Source: an uncultured Simkaniaceae bacterium (GTDB lineage Bacteria; Chlamydiota; Chlamydiia; Chlamydiales; Rhabdochlamydiaceae). From it: a stretch of 64,000 bases of DNA. The position numbers and the translations under genes are program-made. The notes beneath the pieces are model-generated. The model had not been told where the DNA came from, searched no databases, and worked only from the letters and a program-made list of their open reading frames with translations. Below are positions 2,566-58,555 of the stretch, in pieces. The stretch covers positions 3,346 to 67,345 of the forward strand of contig CAWBSQ010000005.1 in assembly GCA_963791555.1 (NCBI GenBank). Reading direction: 5' to 3'. How positions within the stretch are numbered: position 1 is the first letter of the stretch; every line of letters starts with the position of its first letter.

Positions 2566-4200
2566 ATGGTTAGTTCAATAGATTTTAATCATAAACAAGA
2601 TGCCTTCAAGACGCCTCCTCTTTCAGCAAATATATTGCCCGTTCGAGCATGGCGCCGCGCAATAGCTTATCTCTCAGAAACGGACCAGGATGCTTGTGCA
2701 GTTGTTTCTAAGCAACTAGCCATACTCGTTCTTAGTGATCCCACTGCTGGCTTAGAAGCAATGGATAAAAGAAAAAAGACAATTCTTAATTACAACCCCA
2801 TCCCTTCCGAATTTCGTGGATCGACCCAAGGGCCAACAGGTCGCTTTCTTTTTGATCATCCACGTTCTAAAGATCTTCGTATCCAAAACATCCACCAAAA
2901 AATCAAAGATAGAATGGGGGGTGATCCAACCTTTGATCAAACCATGAAAAAAGTTTGCGAAATCGAACATGCTCATCCAGACTATATTCCTCTTTACCAT
3001 GGTGGAAGCCTCGAGCTTATGGTTTTCATGTCGTTGACCCGTGCTCTGTTATCGACACCCTACATCCCAGGAATGGAAACATTTCCTTGCTCAAATCCCA
3101 TGATCAGATTCCCTTCTCCCGATGGACCGAAAACCATCGGAGAAGCTCTTAGTGAATTCCCTCCAAACTTTGATGATGTTATAGAAACTGTCCGAAATGA
3201 ATTGCTTGCTTGCAACCCATCCTTATTTGCAAATTTTGACATTAACGGAGAATCCACTTGGGATTATTATTTATCGAATAGAAGTTGCACCCCATTTCGT
3301 ATTCAATCATTTTTGCAAAATCTGTGTAAAAGCTACCAAATCAAACCTCATCAAAAATACCTCGACCAATTAGAAGTTCTTCATACGGAACTCTACCGAT
3401 TAGCGATTACTTATGTTGAGCAAAATATGCCTAGTCCAAGTCACTATCTTGCTATCGAGGGAATGCTTTTACAGATTTTGATCCCTGCTCGTGTGTTAGA
3501 TAAAATAGCTTATGCTTCAGTCGCCTATGGTGAAATTCAAAAAAACGATAAATCTCTTTTAGAGAGGTGCTTGACATTGCGTAACGATCCCGATAGCCAG
3601 CCTTTGATGCAAGTCAGACTGCTTGCTCAATCGATCTTGATCAATGGCTATGGTATTAAAGTCTTTGCGCATTGTTGTGGTGGTTTCTTTGATGAACACG
3701 GTATCACTGATAAGCCCAAGCGTATGACAGATAAACAATGGGCAATACAAACTAATTGTCTTGCACGCAAAGAAGAAATCCTCAAGGAAGCAAGAGAGAT
3801 CTTCACAAAGATGATCTTGCTATCACCAAAAAAAACAAAAAAATCTACTGATATACAGCCATCTACTGTAATTGCTCCTAAAACTATTTTGCTTAATTAC
3901 GCGCTATTACAAAAAAAAGCATCGATGGCTCTTCCACCAGGGTTTAGCCTCCGGCCCTATTACAATGAACATAACCTGCTTGAGAAAGTTATTCAGACGG
4001 ATCCCGAAGGGAATGAAACCATTTATCTCCCAGCTGCTCCTAAACCTGTTTCAGTGACAAAAGAAAAGTTTGATAAACTGCTGTCTTGGTGTTCTAATAG
4101 TCGATATCGCTGCTTTAACGATAACCTAGGCAAGCCTGTGAAAATCCTTGAAATTAGCCTTCATGAAGACCAAGAAGACACAATCTATAGTTACTCTTGA
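2566..4200 (+). CDS. hypothetical protein with an F-box-like N-terminal segment (possible eukaryote-like effector)
   Basis: 544-aa ORF. Residues 19-57 (LSANILPVRAWRRAIAYLSETDQDACAVVSKQLAILVLS) fit the F-box pattern L..LP....I..L...D.....VsK.l..lv. I do not recognise the rest. Confidence 0.6.
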   Translation: MVSSIDFNHKQDAFKTPPLSANILPVRAWRRAIAYLSETDQDACAVVSKQLAILVLSDPTAGLEAMDKRKKTILNYNPIPSEFRGSTQGPTGRFLFDHPRSKDLRIQNIHQKIKDRMGGDPTFDQTMKKVCEIEHAHPDYIPLYHGGSLELMVFMSLTRALLSTPYIPGMETFPCSNPMIRFPSPDGPKTIGEALSEFPPNFDDVIETVRNELLACNPSLFANFDINGESTWDYYLSNRSCTPFRIQSFLQNLCKSYQIKPHQKYLDQLEVLHTELYRLAITYVEQNMPSPSHYLAIEGMLLQILIPARVLDKIAYASVAYGEIQKNDKSLLERCLTLRNDPDSQPLMQVRLLAQSILINGYGIKVFAHCCGGFFDEHGITDKPKRMTDKQWAIQTNCLARKEEILKEAREIFTKMILLSPKKTKKSTDIQPSTVIAPKTILLNYALLQKKASMALPPGFSLRPYYNEHNLLEKVIQTDPEGNETIYLPAAPKPVSVTKEKFDKLLSWCSNSRYRCFNDNLGKPVKILEISLHEDQEDTIYSYS

Positions 4201-4222
4201 GCAAGATTCACTACAAGATGCC

Positions 4223-4302
4223 TTAGAAAGTATTTGCAAATTCTTTTCCCTATGAGAATTTTTCAATTCTCATAGGGAAAAGAATTTGCAAATACTTTCT
4301 AA
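4223..4302. repeat. perfect 38-bp-arm inverted repeat (4-nt loop) between convergent genes; likely bidirectional terminator built from the dispersed palindromic motif
   Basis: The left arm ttagaaagtatttgcaaattcttttccctatgagaatt (4223-4260) is the exact reverse complement of 4265-4302. The loop is tttc. Confidence 0.9.
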
Positions 4303-4323
4303 GAGCGACGGGAATCGAACCGA

Positions 4324-4776
4324 CTAGCGGAAGAAAGTACGTTCTACAGTATCTCTCAACCAGCGGATATTTTCGGTGATCATATCCATAGTTGTTTGAT
4401 CTGAGCGAGCCCCTTCAGCAGAGTATTTAAAACGTAATCCAGCAAAATCCCACGCTGCTGTTACAAGTCTTATAGGAAGGGCCAGGTGTTCTACTTCGCT
4501 TCGCGCATAATTGGCTACACCATGGGCAACATAGATTAGGCTAGAGTAGCTTTTCTTGAATTCACGCGCGCGTGAAGCCTCATCGAATGTTGCAAATGCT
4601 TTAATCGCCCTGCCAGCTGCTAGGCCGATGCCACCTAACACTTGAAGAGATGCATAAGAACCACGAAGTGGGGCTGAATAGGTGGCCGTAAATGGAAGAT
4701 AGCCCGACCAGTTCATCACTTTTTCCAGCGCTGCAAAACCTTTTTCGATTTCAGTTTTATTCAACTCAAAGGTCAT
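4324..4776 (-). CDS. hypothetical protein
   Basis: 150-aa ORF with no overlapping competitor and no recognised motif. Confidence 0.55.
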   Translation of the reverse strand: MTFELNKTEIEKGFAALEKVMNWSGYLPFTATYSAPLRGSYASLQVLGGIGLAAGRAIKAFATFDEASRAREFKKSYSSLIYVAHGVANYARSEVEHLALPIRLVTAAWDFAGLRFKYSAEGARSDQTTMDMITENIRWLRDTVERTFFR

Positions 4777-32292: not shown

Positions 32293-32347
32293 CAACTCCG
32301 AACAGGAGTCGCACTTGCAGGTCATTGCTAGCAAGAGATTTTAAGTC
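32293..32347 (-). pseudogene. degenerate tRNA-Leu(UAA) 3-prime-half fragment (F1)
   Basis: About 80 percent identical by eye to fragment F2. It retains the anticodon-loop string cttaaaa, but the T-loop is degenerate (gtgcgactcc) and there is no 5-prime half. Confidence 0.6.
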
Positions 32348-32552
32348 AGGCTGTATCCAACCCTTTTCAAAGTTATTCGATGCTAATCAATTGAAAAATA
32401 GCAACTTATATTTGCACTAGGGTTGACAAGCCAGGATTAAGATCAATAGTTTTTGATCCTTGCTATCCCATATATGTCCCAAATTTTATAAAATACATGG
32501 CCTATTTATTACCGAACGGGTATAATTTGAGAAAAGAGTTTGGGACTGATTT

Positions 32553-33483: not shown

Positions 33484-33537
33484 TGCTCGGAACAGGAGTC
33501 GAACCTACACGCCATTGCTTGCAGGGGATTTTAAGAC
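33484..33537 (-). pseudogene. tRNA-Leu(UAA) 3-prime half (F2): anticodon loop, long variable arm, T-arm, acceptor 3-prime strand; no 5-prime half
   Basis: Minus strand reads GTCTTAAAATCCCCTGCAAGCAATGGCGTGTAGGTTCGACTCCTGTTCCGAGCA. The sequence upstream of the loop cannot pair with TCCCC, and no GCTCGGA acceptor 5-prime strand was found nearby. Confidence 0.7.
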
Positions 33538-33550
33538 AACTTCTTATGCG

Positions 33551-33840
33551 CTATTTTTTGCTTCGCTCTGCGACGCGACGCGAAGAGGGGTCCCGCCCTG
33601 AGACGTAAGTCCGGCGGGGAGATGAGCGCGCAGAGCAGCCCACGGCTTCGAGGCGCACAGCAAAATCTAAGCGAGTGAAAGCGAGCGGTCCGAATGACGA
33701 AGCGTAGTATTAGATACGCGTAAGGAGGGAGGATTGATTTGGCCAAGTGCACCGAAGCTCAAGAGGGCAAGCGGGGAACAAGCCAGGGGACTTGTTCCCG
33801 ACATGTCTTTCCTAAGCGCCTCTTCAGACTTTACTCTCTC
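33551..33840 (+). repeat. R-element copy R2 (full length, about 290 bp)
   Basis: Aligns with 58183-58495. The core ggcttc.aggcgcacagcaaaatctaagcga...gacgaagcgtagtattagatac.cgtaaggagggaggattgatttggc.aag is about 93 percent identical over about 105 nt. Confidence 0.85.
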
Positions 33841-54313: not shown

Positions 54314-55051
54314 ATGCTTAATACCATCCTCTTTGCAGTTTTTACTTTAACCGCCCAACAGGCTACTCAGATCGGTAAGAGGATCTGGGAAAATGAAAGC
54401 AGAGGATCCTTAGAAGGCCTCACCTGCTGGAATGATGGAGAAGACTTTGCATCGATGGGGATCAACCATTGTATTTGGTATCCAGCTGACAAAAAAGGTG
54501 TGTTTGAAGAGACCTTTCCTGCCCTCATCAACTATCTTCAAAAACAAGGTGTCGTAGTGCCCGGCTGGCTGACCAACCATCCCCCCTGTCCATGGAATTC
54601 AAGAAAAGAATTCCTTGATGAATTCGAATCGGCCAAGATGTCCAGGCTTCGCAAATTCCTGTATCAAACATCTGCTTTGCAGGTTCGCTTTATGGCCGAG
54701 CGCCTCGATCAGGCCTTCCCTAAAATCCTCGAACAGGTCGGCGAGCAAAAAAAAGACCATGTGAAACAGCAATTTCAGCGCCTACAAGCGACCCGAAAAG
54801 GGCCCTATGTCCTCATCGACTATTACAACTTCAAGGGCGCTGGCACATCGCCTACCGAGCGTTACAACGGCCAGGGTTGGGGGCTATTGCAAGTTCTCGA
54901 AGAGATGACCGGCGACACAAAGTTTCCTGAGTACGAGTTTGTCAAGGCAGCCCAAAAAGTTCTTCAACGCCGCGTCGACAATGCACCGCCCGAACGCAAC
55001 GAGCAGCGCTGGCTCCAAGGCTGGCTCAACCGCCTCCAAACCTATCATTGA
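54314..55051 (+). CDS. hypothetical protein (signal peptide)
   Basis: 245-aa ORF. Family not recognised. Confidence 0.55.
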   Translation: MLNTILFAVFTLTAQQATQIGKRIWENESRGSLEGLTCWNDGEDFASMGINHCIWYPADKKGVFEETFPALINYLQKQGVVVPGWLTNHPPCPWNSRKEFLDEFESAKMSRLRKFLYQTSALQVRFMAERLDQAFPKILEQVGEQKKDHVKQQFQRLQATRKGPYVLIDYYNFKGAGTSPTERYNGQGWGLLQVLEEMTGDTKFPEYEFVKAAQKVLQRRVDNAPPERNEQRWLQGWLNRLQTYH

Positions 55052-55122
55052 AAAGAATACCCTAAGAGGGGTTTCATAATTGACATGTGGCCTTGCAGCA
55101 GACCTACTTATAGCCTGTATCA

Positions 55123-55145
55123 AGTTACTGGTTACATTACGAATT
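55123..55145 (+). repeat. left 23-nt direct repeat bracketing the two-gene cassette
   Basis: agttactggttacattacgaatt versus agttactggttatgttacgaatt at 57853-57875 (21/23 identical). Confidence 0.85.
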
Positions 55146-55211
55146 TTTGACTGGATCGCCTTCTCTGAGAAACTCCGTACTTTCTCCTTTCCCACTCACA
55201 GATGCCCGGCT

Positions 55212-56387
55212 CTACACAGTCAGAGCCTGAGATGTTAGTTCATCAGAGATTTCTTCTACGGGTTGACCTTCAAAATCGATATAAGCAACGATCTCTTTCG
55301 GATTTGGATAGGTTTTTTCTTCAAAAAAAGCTTTCGATGCATTTTCTCTAGCTTTTTCAGAAGTCACTCTATCCGCCTTATCTTTATACTTTCGAAGAGG
55401 TATGGGTATTTCACAATATTCTTTGAAAGAATCTTTTTCCAGATGAAGCATTTTAATAATTGCAAGACGAGAAAATTCCATTAAATCAAATAAATCTTTA
55501 AGTTCTAGCTTATCAATCGGACTTTTTGTTTCTGCATTCAATACTGGAAAATCAAGTTCTTTAAGATATCCATGCAGGTCAGGGGCTCGGTGATCATGCC
55601 AAATTGACAAAAGACGAGATTTAATCTTCTCCTCCGACATTGCTTTATATCGCTGAGGTCCAGTTATTCCCTTCAAAAATAGACTAAATCGTTTTGAGAC
55701 CTTTTTATCGTGATCATGTGAAGGATTTCCGGCGAAAGAATCAATTAAAGGGAATAATTTAGAAAATGATGTGCTAGCATAGATTGAACGTTCCCATAGC
55801 GTTGCTTCAAAGAAAGCCTTCAAATTAAAATACGGACGAGCCGCTGTTTTTCTGGAGTTGAATATTTCAACAATCCGAGAAAAATAAAATCCAGCCTGCT
55901 TTAACTCTTCCTCGTTATAACAAAACTTTCCACCATTTGTATTACCAAAAAAAGGCTCAGCGCATATATTGGACCTGTGTCCAATTCTACTTGGGTGTGT
56001 ACCTACAAATCCCTCTTCTAATGTTCCATATGAAAATGCTCCTGCAATACTAATGTAGAGGGGTTTGACAAGGTATAATGCCTCGATAATAAACCAAAAA
56101 TAACGATCTCTCAGTTCTAATGGAACTCTGCTGTCAATTTTAATGCAGGTATTGCATATCCCCCTCACTAAACCATATCCTGGATATACCCAAGCAGCTA
56201 ATCCTATATGCGTTTCGACAGAAGAGCCTTTCGGAGCAGCACAAGCTAATGCATGCTGTGGAGTTAAAGTAAGGTAAATCCCAGGAGCTAATTCTATCGG
56301 GAGATTTGAAGAAAAGGACCAGTCAAATGGAAAGTTTAGAAATAGGTAGCATCTATCATCAACAGAAAATTGATCATCTAATTGCAT
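55212..56387 (-). CDS. hypothetical protein with a C-terminal HEPN-like R-x4-H-G motif (cassette gene 2)
   Basis: 391 aa. WHDH-R267-APDL-H272-G lies in a predicted helical C-terminal half. No other motif recognised. Confidence 0.6.
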   Translation of the reverse strand: MQLDDQFSVDDRCYLFLNFPFDWSFSSNLPIELAPGIYLTLTPQHALACAAPKGSSVETHIGLAAWVYPGYGLVRGICNTCIKIDSRVPLELRDRYFWFIIEALYLVKPLYISIAGAFSYGTLEEGFVGTHPSRIGHRSNICAEPFFGNTNGGKFCYNEEELKQAGFYFSRIVEIFNSRKTAARPYFNLKAFFEATLWERSIYASTSFSKLFPLIDSFAGNPSHDHDKKVSKRFSLFLKGITGPQRYKAMSEEKIKSRLLSIWHDHRAPDLHGYLKELDFPVLNAETKSPIDKLELKDLFDLMEFSRLAIIKMLHLEKDSFKEYCEIPIPLRKYKDKADRVTSEKARENASKAFFEEKTYPNPKEIVAYIDFEGQPVEEISDELTSQALTV

Positions 56388-56431
56388 TAATCCCTCTGGT
56401 TTAAAATCTTGAGGCTAACCATATCATAAAA

Positions 56432-57547
56432 TCATTTTGCAAAACCAGCATGTTGCAAAGCGCTGATCTTATTTTCTGCGTCAACCTCTTGGATGAGCTT
56501 TTGAACGTCAATCACCTCTGAAGGTTTCTTTCGATCCTTATCCACTAGAATCATTACTCCAGGGACAACTGGAATACGCTCAGGGACTGTAATCGCCAAT
56601 TCTTTTCGTTTGTGCATCCCTTCTAATATTCCATTTACGTATTTGACACCTCGAATGATCGCTTTCAGTCTTTCCTTTTGCTTCTTCCAATCGCAGGTGA
56701 TAACTCTAAGAGGGCGCCTTACTTCCTTCAAGGCAAATCCAGTGACAAGAAACTCAGCAAGATCCCCATCTAACAGCTCCCTGCCAGCTCCTCCTTTATA
56801 AAGATTAGGGCGCTTGAGCCATTGCTCCTTGGGTTTAGTACTGGTAGAGACCCCAAGTCTTTCCAGTCTGGCGAAAAGTCTAGCTCCCGAAAGATTTGAC
56901 CCGTCTTGCATCTGCATGAGATAGCTATGCAAAAGTCGCAAAAGTATATTATGCTCAAACTGTTCTACATCAGCCCCATCGCCAACACGCCCTACTAACC
57001 ATACGCGGCTCATTAGGACATGCCAAGCCAAGTGCTTTACCAACAGCTCAAAGGCAAACCCTTTGTCTCCTTGCTCCAATTCTTTTTCCCAATCCTCCAA
57101 CAAGCCTGAAATACTCAAGGCATGTTTGTGGCAAGGATTTTCTCGGCGCCATTTCACGGACTTCGCTATGATTTCCTTTCGATCGATGACCTGAAGAAAA
57201 AGGTGCTTTAAGGCTTCCATTGTCACCAGAATCTCTCTTGATAAGAAACTAATAGATTCATGTAATAGTTTGTTTACATCGGTAGGATCGCACTGCAAAG
57301 CGTCCTGCTGAAAACTTCTCAACGTACGATACAAAGCTTGCGGCATTGGGAAATAGGCATCTATCCGATCTTGATACGTTTGCGGAAACGTATCTATAAG
57401 ATTTCCCAAATGGATCTGCTCAAGAAATCCAGCAGGAGTATCAACTGTCGTGTGGTCACCCCTAAATTCAGGTATTAGCCTATCGCTTTCGCTTATCAAC
57501 CAATCCCATTTCAATTGAGTTTTGAGAATTCCTTCTCTTCCGATCAC
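56432..57547 (-). CDS. hypothetical protein (cassette gene 1)
   Basis: 371 aa from a GTG start. The frame stays open 28 codons further upstream with protein-like sequence but no start codon. 44 nt upstream of gene 2. Confidence 0.55.
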   Translation of the reverse strand: MIGREGILKTQLKWDWLISESDRLIPEFRGDHTTVDTPAGFLEQIHLGNLIDTFPQTYQDRIDAYFPMPQALYRTLRSFQQDALQCDPTDVNKLLHESISFLSREILVTMEALKHLFLQVIDRKEIIAKSVKWRRENPCHKHALSISGLLEDWEKELEQGDKGFAFELLVKHLAWHVLMSRVWLVGRVGDGADVEQFEHNILLRLLHSYLMQMQDGSNLSGARLFARLERLGVSTSTKPKEQWLKRPNLYKGGAGRELLDGDLAEFLVTGFALKEVRRPLRVITCDWKKQKERLKAIIRGVKYVNGILEGMHKRKELAITVPERIPVVPGVMILVDKDRKKPSEVIDVQKLIQEVDAENKISALQHAGFAK

Positions 57548-57719
57548 ACCAAATCGATCTCTAACACCATTATCAAAAACTAATAACCAATCGATAGTAA
57601 AACCTCTTCCTAAACCGAATTTTTCTTGAACAGAAAGAGTCTACCCAAAGTTTTCTATTACCCGCAATCGCTTGTTCCAGAATATAATTGCCTTCTTTTG
57701 CTTTGGGATTTTCCCTTAA

Positions 57720-57854
57720 TTATTTTAGAGATTCCTTACCCTTCAAATCTTTCAGCCAAGCAAAAAGACATTCTGTGGCTCGAACATCATCCTCATTATA
57801 GTTGACGATGTCCTCTAAAATCTCCCGATTGCCCATTTCAAGCCATTCCTCCAG
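57720..57854 (-). pseudogene. C-terminal remnant of an RNase H-fold 3-prime-5-prime exonuclease (YprB/PolB-exo-like)
   Basis: LEEWLEMGNREILEDIVNYNEDDVRATECLFAWLKDL matches the Exo III-type ...I..YNe.Dv.at..L..WL ending of that family. The reading frame begins exactly at the right direct repeat, which carries in-frame stops. Confidence 0.45.
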
Positions 57855-57875
57855 TTACTGGTTATGTTACGAATT
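57853..57875 (+). repeat. right 23-nt direct repeat bracketing the two-gene cassette
   Basis: See 55123-55145. About 150 nt from the 3-prime end of tRNA-Ser. Confidence 0.85.
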
Positions 57876-58023
57876 AACGATTGAGCTGGAACCCGTACCA
57901 GGAGAATGCGTAGTAGAGAATGGGAGGCTTATTGAGAACCGATCGTATTATGTACCTCATACAACCATCGAGACCCTTGCACTCCTGGATGAGGAGTACA
58001 AGGGTTCGAATTAGTTGCGTAAT

Positions 58024-58110
58024 CGGAAGAGGTAGGATTCGAACCCACGGTCGGCTTGCGCCGACTGCTGTTTTCAAGACAGCCGCATTAGGCCACTCTG
58101 CCACTCTTCC
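58024..58110 (-). tRNA. tRNA-Ser(UGA), type II with long variable arm
   Basis: GGAAGAGTGGCAGAGTGGCCTAATGCGGCTGTCTTGAAAACAGCAGTCGGCGCAAGCCGACCGTGGGTTCGAATCCTACCTCTTCCG. The acceptor, anticodon (GCTGT/ACAGC), variable (GTCGGC/GCCGAC) and T stems all pair. No encoded CCA. Confidence 0.95.
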
Positions 58111-58182
58111 TTAGAAGGAGATGATTCAGAAAAACGCTAGAGATTGTACTACATGCTATATTTTTTGGAGAGGGAAAAGATA

Positions 58183-58495
58183 CTATTTTTGTGCTCTGCG
58201 AGATGACACGAGCGACCATGCGAATGAAGAGAGCGGGACGAGAGTGCACGAGCAGCCAGCGGCTTCAAGGCGCACAGCAAAATCTAAGCGAATAGAAGTG
58301 AGCGGTTCGAACGACGAAGCGTAGTATTAGATACACGTAAGGAGGGAGGATTGATTTGGCAAAGCGGATTGAAGCTTAAGGGAGCTGTTGAAGACACGAG
58401 AAGATCCGGGGGATCTTCGTAGTGCGAAAACAGGGGGGTGTGCTTACGCAGTAGGACACACAACCCGACATGTACAATGGAAGCGCTTACACAGA
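58183..58495 (+). repeat. R-element copy R3 (about 310 bp)
   Basis: Aligned to 33551-33840 from ctatttttg.gctctgcga through cccgacatgt. Lies between the tRNA-Ser 5-prime side and the pheS terminator motif. Confidence 0.85.
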
Positions 58496-58521
58496 TTTCA
58501 TTCTAAATCTATGGAGGAAAA

Positions 58522-58544
58522 AATTTGCAAATGCTTTCTTAGAA
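58522..58544. repeat. palindromic motif copy (half unit) just downstream of pheS
   Basis: aatttgcaaatgctttcttagaa, 12 nt beyond the pheS stop. Confidence 0.8.
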
Positions 58545-58555
58545 TTTATTTCTCT

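Follow-up and report, generated by a model that had tools for sequence, protein, structure and literature searches.

What is the short two-gene segment that lies between two direct repeats beside a tRNA-Ser(UGA) gene in an uncultured Simkaniaceae bacterium, and how did it come to be there? The segment (55121-57875) was studied within a 64-kb stretch of contig CAWBSQ010000005.1, referred to here as the window, which was compared with a series of contigs fetched from metagenomes and relatives (loci L002-L049). An earlier reading of the letters alone (the original prediction) had taken it for a cassette without an integrase that carries a single, undescribed two-gene system of the defence or toxin type. 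The analysis described below leads to a different view of its contents and a broader one of its borders: the segment is probably a 2.73-kb integrase-less mobile cassette, flanked by attachment (att)-type sites and loaded with two independent cargo genes, A and B, the second of which likely encodes a HEPN-type RNase effector. The more interesting result goes beyond what had been claimed; the repeat at the borders is the signature of a widespread, polar, tRNA-Asn-derived boundary site in the environmental chlamydiae.

A degenerate form of the 23-nt repeat, AGTTACTGGTTAYRTTACGAATT, matched the window at two positions only, 55123-55145 and 57853-57875, both on the plus strand. This number did not change when up to three mismatches were permitted, and not one of 100 dinucleotide shuffles gave a match. 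The repeat could be extended to 26 nt at 88% identity; a 12-nt stretch, TAACCAGTAACT, is identical in both copies, and all three mismatches fall outside of it. Enclosed by the repeats, as had been described, are two minus-strand open reading frames (ORFs), A (371 amino acids, aa) and B (391 aa), separated by 44 nt, together with the remnant of an exonuclease gene that abuts the right repeat. The distance from this repeat to the 3' end of tRNA-Ser(UGA), given earlier as about 150 nt, is 148 nt, and the flanks are indeed those of an ordinary chromosome, with a major facilitator superfamily (MFS) transporter (PF07690) and a 245-aa ORF on the left and pheS on the right.

That this interval is accessory DNA follows from comparison with a syntenic relative, L024, which shares ~79% nucleotide identity with the window and is collinear with it over a region that begins at infC-rpmI-rplT-pheS, takes in the 245-aa ORF and the MFS transporter, and continues past them. 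Homology between the two ends at 58024, the 3' end of tRNA-Ser, and resumes at 55045, the stop codon of the 245-aa ORF, and hence the whole of 55046-58023 is accessory. In its place, L024 carries a 1.9-kb segment in which a 488-aa ATPase_2 gene lies on the opposite strand and from which both the 23-mer and the larger motif to which it belongs are absent. The locus is thus polymorphic for the presence of the cassette, and the notion of a horizontally acquired, repeat-bounded and integrase-less unit beside a tRNA gene was borne out. A search of relatives for an empty site with a single 23-mer had also been proposed; the cassette is missing from L024, and the slot was found replaced, with no single 23-mer in it.

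The 23-mer proved to be the core of a motif of ~60 nt (consensus ...aatCCAgtcAAAAGTTCGTAACGTAACCAGTAACTGGAGtTt). A 21-nt core, TTCGTAAYRTAACCAGTAACT, was present on 21 metagenome contigs whose flanks are unrelated apart from a common consensus around it, (A/T)CCAGTCAAAAG-TTCGTAACGTAACCAGTAACT-GGAG, often with a terminator-like hairpin following. An nhmmer profile of the ~60-nt motif found additional, more diverged copies, and the positions recorded include L028-L048, 14151-14214 and 16739-16800 in L002, and 3131-3188 in L027; the motif was not found in viral contigs. At least two copies occur in 14 sequences (13 contigs and the window), where they are 0.8-3.5 kb apart and always in one orientation per sequence; both copies in the window are co-oriented with tRNA-Ser. 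Five loci (L002, L004, L033, L042 and L046) have their copies on the downstream side of tRNA-Asn and in its orientation, within a conserved recD2-tRNA-Asn neighbourhood. The RecD2 proteins of the contigs with tRNA-Asn arrays are 55-63% identical and the GC content of these contigs ranges from 30 to 53%; across contigs of this same range, the 21-nt core is identical. From its sequence and distribution, the motif is concluded to mark cassette boundaries in tandem arrays of environmental chlamydiae; it is a recurrent site and no chance match.

The link to tRNA-Asn was not limited to neighbourhood. An end-to-end alignment pairs the motif with tRNA-Asn positions 36-74, a span that begins on the 3' side of the anticodon arm and closes with the discriminator base; it scores z = 1.6-3.9, as against z of -0.3 to -0.6 for other tRNAs. 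In L004, a close relative of the window at this cassette, an A-B pair is located directly downstream of tRNA-Asn(GTT), and the sequence after B reads ...CCAGTCAAAAGTTCGTAACGTAACCAG|CATCCGGAG; at this junction, the distal repeat of the window, complete with its arm, runs directly into 15 nt that reproduce the tRNA-Asn 3' end exactly. In L002, tRNA-Asn and a ~45-nt duplicate of its 3' half enclose a 2.9-kb islet composed of an A homologue and a zeta-toxin module. The sequence found after tRNA-Asn in L004 recurs after the motif in L043, which is what a tandem insertion of elements would produce. It is concluded from these alignments that the 23-mer is the core of a putative att-type site that originated from the tRNA-Asn(GTT) 3' half, of which the 3' ~40 nt of the motif would be a degenerate copy. 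Two other identities were considered for the motif and set aside: a dif/Xer site, as no 11-6-11 palindrome was recognized in it by eye, and an RNA gene, as Rfam identified only the two tRNAs in the window and the variants do not preserve the stem that precedes the core.

How the cassette may have entered the slot is suggested by the two copies that border it. The nhmmer profile matched the proximal copy, R1, at 57849-57873 over profile positions 41-65 of 68 (26 bits, E 3e-6), and the distal copy, R2, over positions 7-63 of 68 (44 bits, E 7e-12); the arm of R2 has its homologue in L004, in the sequence that follows gene B. R1 therefore comprises core and GGAG without the arm, and R2 arm and core without GGAG, which is the reciprocal chimera expected from recombination between attP and attB. 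The cassette would have arrived as a 2.73-kb circle of the order exo'-A-B-attP, and recombination between its canonical attP (arm-core-GGAG) and a degenerate, already resident copy of the site would have been catalysed in trans by a tyrosine integrase. The crossover is proposed to have occurred inside TAACCAGTAACT, leaving R1 as an attL-like and R2 as an attR-like junction. For the circle junction, the model predicts ...CCAGTCAAAAATTCGTAATGTAACCAGTAACTGGAGGAATGGCTTG..., and for the empty site, ...CAATCGTTAATTCGTAACATAACCAGTAACTTGATACAGG.... The break in the exonuclease gene coincides with the edge of R1, so the truncation was probably already the junction of the circle. The organization of the borders thus points to an integrase-mediated insertion.

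With these features in hand, the 23-mer could also be regarded as a dispersed intergenic repeat, similar to repetitive extragenic palindromic elements or miniature inverted-repeat transposable elements, or as a 3'-untranslated-region or terminator module, that has no part in mobility. The motif is short, intergenic and present on many contigs, often with a terminator-like hairpin after it, all of which such a repeat would explain. It would leave unexplained the strict co-orientation in 14 of the 14 multi-copy sequences (a chance of ~1e-5 or less) and with the adjacent tRNA, the restriction to two copies in 64 kb placed exactly at the cassette borders, the reciprocal chimera of R1 and R2, the joint absence of cassette and motif from L024, and the collinearity of the motif with the tRNA-Asn 3' half, together with its fusion, in L004, to a genuine tRNA-Asn 3'-end copy. 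A dispersed repeat is accordingly considered very unlikely.

A number of observations weigh against the view of the segment as a mobile cassette with att-type borders. The motif resembles tRNA-Asn only to a statistically modest degree, and the cassette adjoins tRNA-Ser and not tRNA-Asn. No copy of the tRNA-Ser 3' end was detected at the distal border (score below the null), so the repeats are not a duplication of tRNA-Ser, and the interpretation of this border as a tRNA-Ser attR was rejected. L024 presents a replaced slot, and a clean empty site was not found among the loci compared. Neither BLAST with four integrases nor Pfam scans of 30 ORFs from arrays and their neighbourhoods detected an integrase in the cassette, in the window or on any motif-bearing contig, and a tblastn search of the 64-kb window with four tyrosine integrases returned nothing; the cassette itself encodes A, B and the exonuclease remnant only, with no recombinase gene inside. 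The recombinase of the model is therefore hypothetical. Finally, taken as a whole, the cassette deviates only weakly in composition: its GC content is 40.3%, compared to 44.5 +/- 2.6% in windows of equal size (z = -1.6). The AT-richness noted by eye in the original prediction holds for gene B (GC 37%; GC at third codon positions, GC3, 26.5%, with 50-55% in flanking genes), which accounts for most of the dip, and not for gene A, which is at the average of the window.

The cassette is also partly decayed, its exonuclease gene being truncated and gene A having lost its start. The frame of A is open as far as 57637, and the 30 codons upstream of the GTG (57548-57637) still encode the conserved N-terminus GRGFTIDWLLVFDNGVRDRFG; the start codon of A homologues (TTG in L027) is TTA in the window and is missing in L004 too. 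The first usable start is the GTG at 57547, at a cost of ~22-30 conserved N-terminal residues, and A may be impaired in the window for loss of its usual start codon. One could go further and regard the segment as the decaying remnant of a larger integrative element with neither function nor mobility at present, and the reduction of the exonuclease gene to 43 codons, the condition of the A start and the lack of an integrase in the cassette would all agree with this. Such a remnant is rather unlikely, as both A and B are full-length open frames. The ratio of nonsynonymous to synonymous substitution rates (dN/dS) lies at 0.13-0.23 relative to homologues that differ at ~30% of synonymous sites (0.135 for B and 0.19-0.23 for A), which indicates that both genes are under purifying selection; B retains an intact ATG and a GAGGG ribosome-binding sequence, and the repeats retain their identical 12-nt core.

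If the segment is a cassette, the other occupants of motif-bounded arrays should be informative about its cargo. Among the ORFs of arrays and their neighbourhoods are an Abi_C protein, AbiEii (twice), Fic/DOC, an RHS-repeat toxin with a DUF7336 partner, a Schlafen AlbA_2/HATPase_c_4 protein, DUF6602 and an AAA_33 kinase, in addition to Bro-N, ankyrin-repeat proteins and a group II intron reverse transcriptase; zeta-toxin and HipBA modules adjoin A homologues. Cargo of the Abi, Fic, RHS, zeta and HipA types marks this as a pool dominated by bacterial conflict genes. The defence or toxin signature ascribed to the locus earlier was therefore upheld as regards its surroundings, since cassettes of the same site carry toxin, abortive-infection and defence genes, and not as regards A and B themselves, to which no defence model of PADLOC or Pfam was matched.

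A different destination for the products of A and B, namely the eukaryotic host, was also considered. As effectors of host interaction delivered into it, with the cassette serving as a vehicle for effector exchange, they would be in keeping with the small size of both families and their centring on chlamydiae (the named homologues are from metagenome-assembled genomes, MAGs, of Parachlamydiales, Parachlamydiaceae and Chlamydiae), with the ankyrin-repeat proteins, typical of eukaryote-directed effectors, that are frequent neighbours and fellow cargo, and with the lack of a recognizable fold in A. Relatives of B, on the other hand, occur in prophages, plasmids and MAGs labelled Verrucomicrobia and Anaerolineae, the B superfamily keeps a catalytic-looking Rx4HG motif, and most of the identifiable cassette cargo is bacterial conflict machinery (AbiE, Fic, RHS, zeta, HipA). 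Delivery to a host is thus an unlikely function for either protein.

The claim that A and B form one system fared less well than that of a mobile cassette. A single two-component defence or toxin-antitoxin system, in which A would sense or neutralize and B would serve as a HEPN-like effector, agrees with the co-directional arrangement of the genes 44 nt apart, with the recurrence of this arrangement at the same spacing at a different locus (tRNA-Asn) in L004, and with the purifying selection on each. The two genes are adjacent, however, only in the window and in L004, and these sole two A-B loci are close relatives (87-89% aa identity). A was found without B in L002, L005, L007, L025 and L027 (the contig of L008 ends just after A), and the genes downstream of it vary: a zeta toxin on the opposite strand in L002, a 212-aa ORF in L027 and small unrelated ORFs in L005 and L025. 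Conversely, at least 12 other loci carry B but not A (L010-L023, with no A within 10 kb, and L049), and the recurrent neighbour of B on plasmid-like contigs is a 287-aa DnaB_C/AAA_25 ATPase, not A. Moreover, A possesses a conserved upstream region of its own, and nothing resembling an antitoxin partner was seen. A conserved two-gene system is not supported by the separate occurrence of the two genes, and it is held to be quite improbable; the likeliest interpretation is that A and B are independent defence or toxin cargo genes, with no obligate pairing, on an att-flanked cassette.

Gene A belongs to a very small family. Its homologues form 15-17 clusters among 5.8 billion proteins, searches with a profile included, and the profile revealed no relatives past these; the single named source of an A homologue is a Parachlamydiales MAG, and none was found in viral contigs. 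The earlier statement that neither protein falls into a recognized family was confirmed for A by the absence of matches in Pfam, NCBIfam, PADLOC and PHROGs. An AlphaFold2 model (predicted local distance difference test, pLDDT, 75) is mostly helical with a small C-terminal alpha/beta part. Foldseek returned nothing below E 0.09 in the PDB, the best matches being designed helical repeats at E ~0.1. Sequence-profile searches of the PDB in this analysis gave nothing meaningful.

The sequence immediately upstream of A has been better preserved than its wider surroundings. A stretch of ~50 nt (Table 1) is kept in the window, L027, L004, L002 and L025, while the sequence further upstream differs, which suggests that A has its own promoter; from this conservation, the stretch is probably a promoter or regulatory region of A, and a consensus promoter scan made no call there. 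The genes around A are otherwise diverse. A full-length RNase_H_2 exonuclease precedes it and a 212-aa ORF follows it in L027, zeta-toxin genes lie downstream on the opposite strand in L002, an integrase fragment lies upstream in L005, and ankyrin genes are its neighbours in L025. L008 (1-8490) is an element of ~8.5 kb with a tyrosine integrase, a helix-turn-helix (HTH) regulator, a DUF5906/VapE-like primase and several ORFs of no recognized function, in which the A homologue is the last gene; the ends of this contig overlap (TGTCGCTGGTTCGAT) within a tRNA-Phe(GAA)-like 3' half, which suggests a circular or att-flanked element. All of this fits A as an orphan accessory gene of the same mobile pool, with an accessory or defence role by location only.

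The exonuclease remnant had been noted at the right repeat. Its 44-residue peptide does match RNase_H_2 (PF13482, E 4.8e-7), over profile positions 132-164 of 165, i.e., the last 33. L027 has a full-length gene of 324 aa upstream of its A homologue, and the remnant shares 90.7% identity with residues 282-324 of its product. Homology to that gene begins at GAGGAATGG, right after ...GTAACTG at the edge of R1. With a full-length copy upstream of A elsewhere and a cut exactly at the repeat edge, the remnant is not incidental to the cassette. The exonuclease was also tried as a conserved partner of A and rejected; it is full-length only in L027, reduced to remnants in the window and L004, and lacking in L002, L025, L005 and L008.

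Gene B has a larger and more widely travelled family. A profile search of the full library recovered a superfamily of 79 clusters at 50% identity, and the close family of B is homologous over its full length to a distant clade (hhalign probability 99.9%). The AlphaFold2 model (pLDDT 80, predicted template-modelling score 0.83) consists of an alpha/beta domain of ~150 residues followed by an all-helical domain. The HEPN-like motif remarked on in the original prediction stood up well: R267-x4-H272-G273 is invariant in 25 members of the B family and at least 90% conserved in 50 members of the superfamily, and R267, H272, G273 and R307 are among the best-kept positions across those 50 diverse proteins. 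Distant members read LEALF...EYxxxRNxxxHG...LHEIxRL, a pattern that corresponds to the HEPN signature, as in the RNxxxHxY of the HepT type. Single distant members gave weak matches to Pfam HEPN_Apea (E 1e-3), PADLOC ApeA (7e-3) and PADLOC Csx1/Csm6 (2e-3).

The assignment of B to the HEPN proteins has evidence on the other side as well. It rests on the motif together with these sub-threshold matches; B itself has no match in Pfam, NCBIfam, PADLOC or PHROGs. Foldseek comparison of its model with the PDB and BFVD returned nothing below E 0.09 and no HEPN structure, so that this check, earlier put forward for both predicted structures, yielded a fold match for neither, and a sequence-profile search of the PDB with B gave nothing. 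In the model, residues 269-289, which include H272, have a pLDDT of <50, and R267 is positioned just past the end of helix 252-266. An hhalign comparison of the B-superfamily profile with the Abi_C (HEPN) protein of the arrays was negative, and a specific relationship of B to Abi_C was rejected for this reason. On balance, the conserved motif somewhat favours B as a new HEPN-like single-protein effector with a predicted RNase activity, ApeA-like in its working and not a member of the ApeA family. In such a protein, an N-terminal sensor-like domain would be joined to a C-terminal Rx4H RNase domain for abortive infection, phage defence or element addiction; both the RNase activity and the role in defence would follow from the motif and the genomic company of B.

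That company is of the mobile kind. A scan of 185,579 GTDB species identified six loci of species representatives with B and without A. B lies beside a prophage portal gene in L018 and L013, and one contig of IMG/VR is its sole occurrence on a viral contig. It also adjoins AbiEi, a DUF4143 ATPase, a transposase and a YhcG nuclease. On contigs that resemble plasmids or integrative and conjugative elements (L016, L017 and L019-L022; e.g., L019 9098-11182), the gene for the 287-aa DnaB_C/AAA_25 ATPase is found ~40 nt before B, and this ATPase may be a real partner of B or a replication module. For one B protein, P0033, there are records on 65 contigs, Tara Oceans assemblies among them, near copper-resistance genes, integrases and AbiEii.

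The features of the variable slot and its borders are compiled in Table 1.

Table 1. Features between tRNA-Ser(UGA) and the 245-aa chromosomal ORF, listed from the tRNA gene onward (positions in the window).
Feature	Position	Strand	Remarks
tRNA-Ser(UGA)	58024..58110	-	ARAGORN (tga); Rfam tRNA 56.9 bits; variable slot begins at its 3' end
Spacer between tRNA-Ser and proximal repeat, 148 nt	57876..58023	-	Unique sequence; no homologue in L024 or any fetched locus
R1, proximal motif copy	57849..57875	-	Core and GGAG only (AATTCGTAACATAACCAGTAACTGGAG, minus strand), without the conserved upstream arm
RNase_H_2-family exonuclease remnant, last 43 codons and stop codon	57720..57851	-	PF13482 match
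Conserved sequence upstream of gene A, TGGAACAAGCGATTGCGGGTAATAGAAAACTTTGGGTAGACTCTTTCTGT	57630..57679	-	Kept in five A loci
Gene A	56432..57547	-	371 aa, GTG start, orphan, mostly alpha-helical
Gene B	55212..56387	-	391 aa, N-terminal alpha/beta and C-terminal helical domain, GC3 26.5%
R2, distal motif copy	55121..55177	-	Upstream arm and core (…GATCCAGTCAAAAATTCGTAATGTAACCAGTAACT), without terminal GGAG
Spacer between R2 and stop codon of 245-aa chromosomal ORF, 75 nt	55046..55120	-	Unique; no homologue in fetched loci; variable slot ends here

Within the slot, the spacer next to tRNA-Ser is possibly the leftover of an older insertion. On the minus strand at 57985-58015, just downstream of tRNA-Ser, it contains AATTCGAACCCTTGTACTCCTCATCCAGGAG, which is loosely motif-like (TTCG...CCAG...GGAG) and could be a third, very degenerate copy of the motif; the nhmmer profile gave no match there. 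On the other side of the tRNA gene, the spacer to pheS (58111-58555) is 445 nt long, compared to 81 nt in L024, with a GC skew of +0.23 to +0.26. Approximately 144 nt of it are 86% identical to 33621-33763, with short matches near 1933 and 41765, and an Rfam search of it was negative; it looks like a dispersed repeat or an insertion. Elsewhere in the window, two 53-nt direct repeats (32296-32348 and 33486-33538) are 81% identical and 1190 nt apart in a 2.3-kb stretch without a long ORF. On the minus strand, these resemble the 3' half of a tRNA, with a T-loop (GGTTCGACTCC) and, by eye, a Leu-type anticodon loop, and ARAGORN made no call; this may be a further islet bounded by partial tRNA copies. 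Concerning the slot of L024, homologues of its ATPase_2 (PF01637) gene (L024 5103-6569) occur near B in a prophage (L018 12230-13663) and in a motif array (L048, reverse complement, 3119-4561), and one pool of cargo seems to serve several types of site.

Obligate intracellular chlamydiae are usually credited with little mobile DNA and few defence systems. The arrays point to a common pool of very small integrase-less cassettes that share one tRNA-Asn-derived site and carry abortive-infection, toxin and defence genes among lineages of 30-53% GC. A limited literature search found no account of such arrays in Chlamydiae. It may tentatively be proposed, with a good deal of doubt, that the ~60-nt pseudo-tRNA-Asn motif is the site of an active, undescribed cassette-exchange system in environmental Chlamydiae, for which an integrase acting in trans, encoded by the chromosome or by another element, would build co-oriented arrays at tRNA-Asn and occasionally at other tRNAs, giving rise, in obligate intracellular bacteria, to islands of defence and toxin genes that would be integron-like in layout and tRNA-derived in mechanism, with A (no relative in fold detected) and B (a new HEPN-like family with an N-terminal domain of its own) as two new single-gene defence proteins. 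If active, the site would provide a direct handle for cataloguing the accessory and defence genes of environmental chlamydiae and would add a variant to the ways by which genomic islands are built at tRNA genes; if inactive, the locus would be an ordinary decayed islet. The cassette also provides two uncharacterized protein families for testing, B with R267 and H272 as a candidate catalytic motif, and A with no detectable relative in fold.

Of the known forms of mobile DNA, cis-mobilizable elements (CIMEs), the integrase-less, att-flanked derivatives of integrative elements, come closest to the cassette in architecture, and tandem insertion at tRNA genes is comparable as well. As with these, it has directly repeated att-type sites, no recombinase or transfer genes and a tRNA-linked hotspot; a related element with an integrase exists (L008), and the arrays would represent successive insertions separated by copies of att. 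In contrast to CIMEs, no cognate integrase was identified for the motif, the tRNA-Asn 3' half is represented in the site by a conserved but degenerate pseudo-copy rather than the neighbouring tRNA by an exact one, the site is here beside tRNA-Ser, and the cassettes are unusually small (0.8-3.5 kb).

In known satellites, the last position near attR often holds defence genes. L008 is reminiscent of satellites similar to phage-inducible chromosomal islands or P4, with its ~8.5 kb, tyrosine integrase, HTH regulator, DUF5906/VapE-like primase and an A homologue placed before the attR-side half of tRNA-Phe. The cassette of the window, unlike these, is without modules for integrase, regulator and primase, and no capsid or packaging genes were seen. 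Small, mostly single-gene cassettes that each end in a conserved site, cargo of toxin and defence genes, and a recombinase encoded outside the cassettes are likewise features of integron arrays. The present arrays differ from those in that no IntI or attI lies beside them (they start at tRNA-Asn near recD2), the site is tRNA-derived and not an attC hairpin, genes occur in both orientations, and A has its own conserved upstream region; the likeness is thus one of organization only.

With respect to cargo, B is best compared with HEPN effectors of the ApeA, Abi_C, AbiJ and HepT types, with which it shares a non-catalytic N-terminal domain joined to a helical C-terminal Rx4H(G) domain, an existence as a single gene, and a location on mobile elements or in defence contexts. 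ApeA is a HEPN tRNase activated by a ligand bound in the pocket of its N-terminal and HEPN domains (bioRxiv 10.64898/2026.01.26.701840; PMC3710099); it is composed of N-terminal, Mid and HEPN domains, and the alignment of the family covers residues 21-557 of Ec1ApeA (bioRxiv 10.64898/2026.01.26.701840). B, by comparison, is far shorter at 391 aa, is itself matched by neither the HEPN_Apea nor the ApeA model, and has no match to a HEPN chain in the PDB.

The arrays themselves also resemble the tycheposon islands of marine picocyanobacteria, which are located beside tRNA genes and arise by repeated site-specific integration, with partial tRNAs as separators, integrase-less remnants and defence cargo; tycheposons are defined by a lineage-specific tyrosine recombinase and common replication hallmark genes (bioRxiv 10.1101/2020.12.28.424599). 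Islands adjacent to tRNA genes, successive integration, partial-tRNA separators, degraded remnants and defence genes are common to both. The recombinase and the replication hallmarks of tycheposons were not seen in the chlamydial arrays, which belong to a different host phylum and are set apart by the use of one ~60-nt separator across genomes of 30-53% GC.

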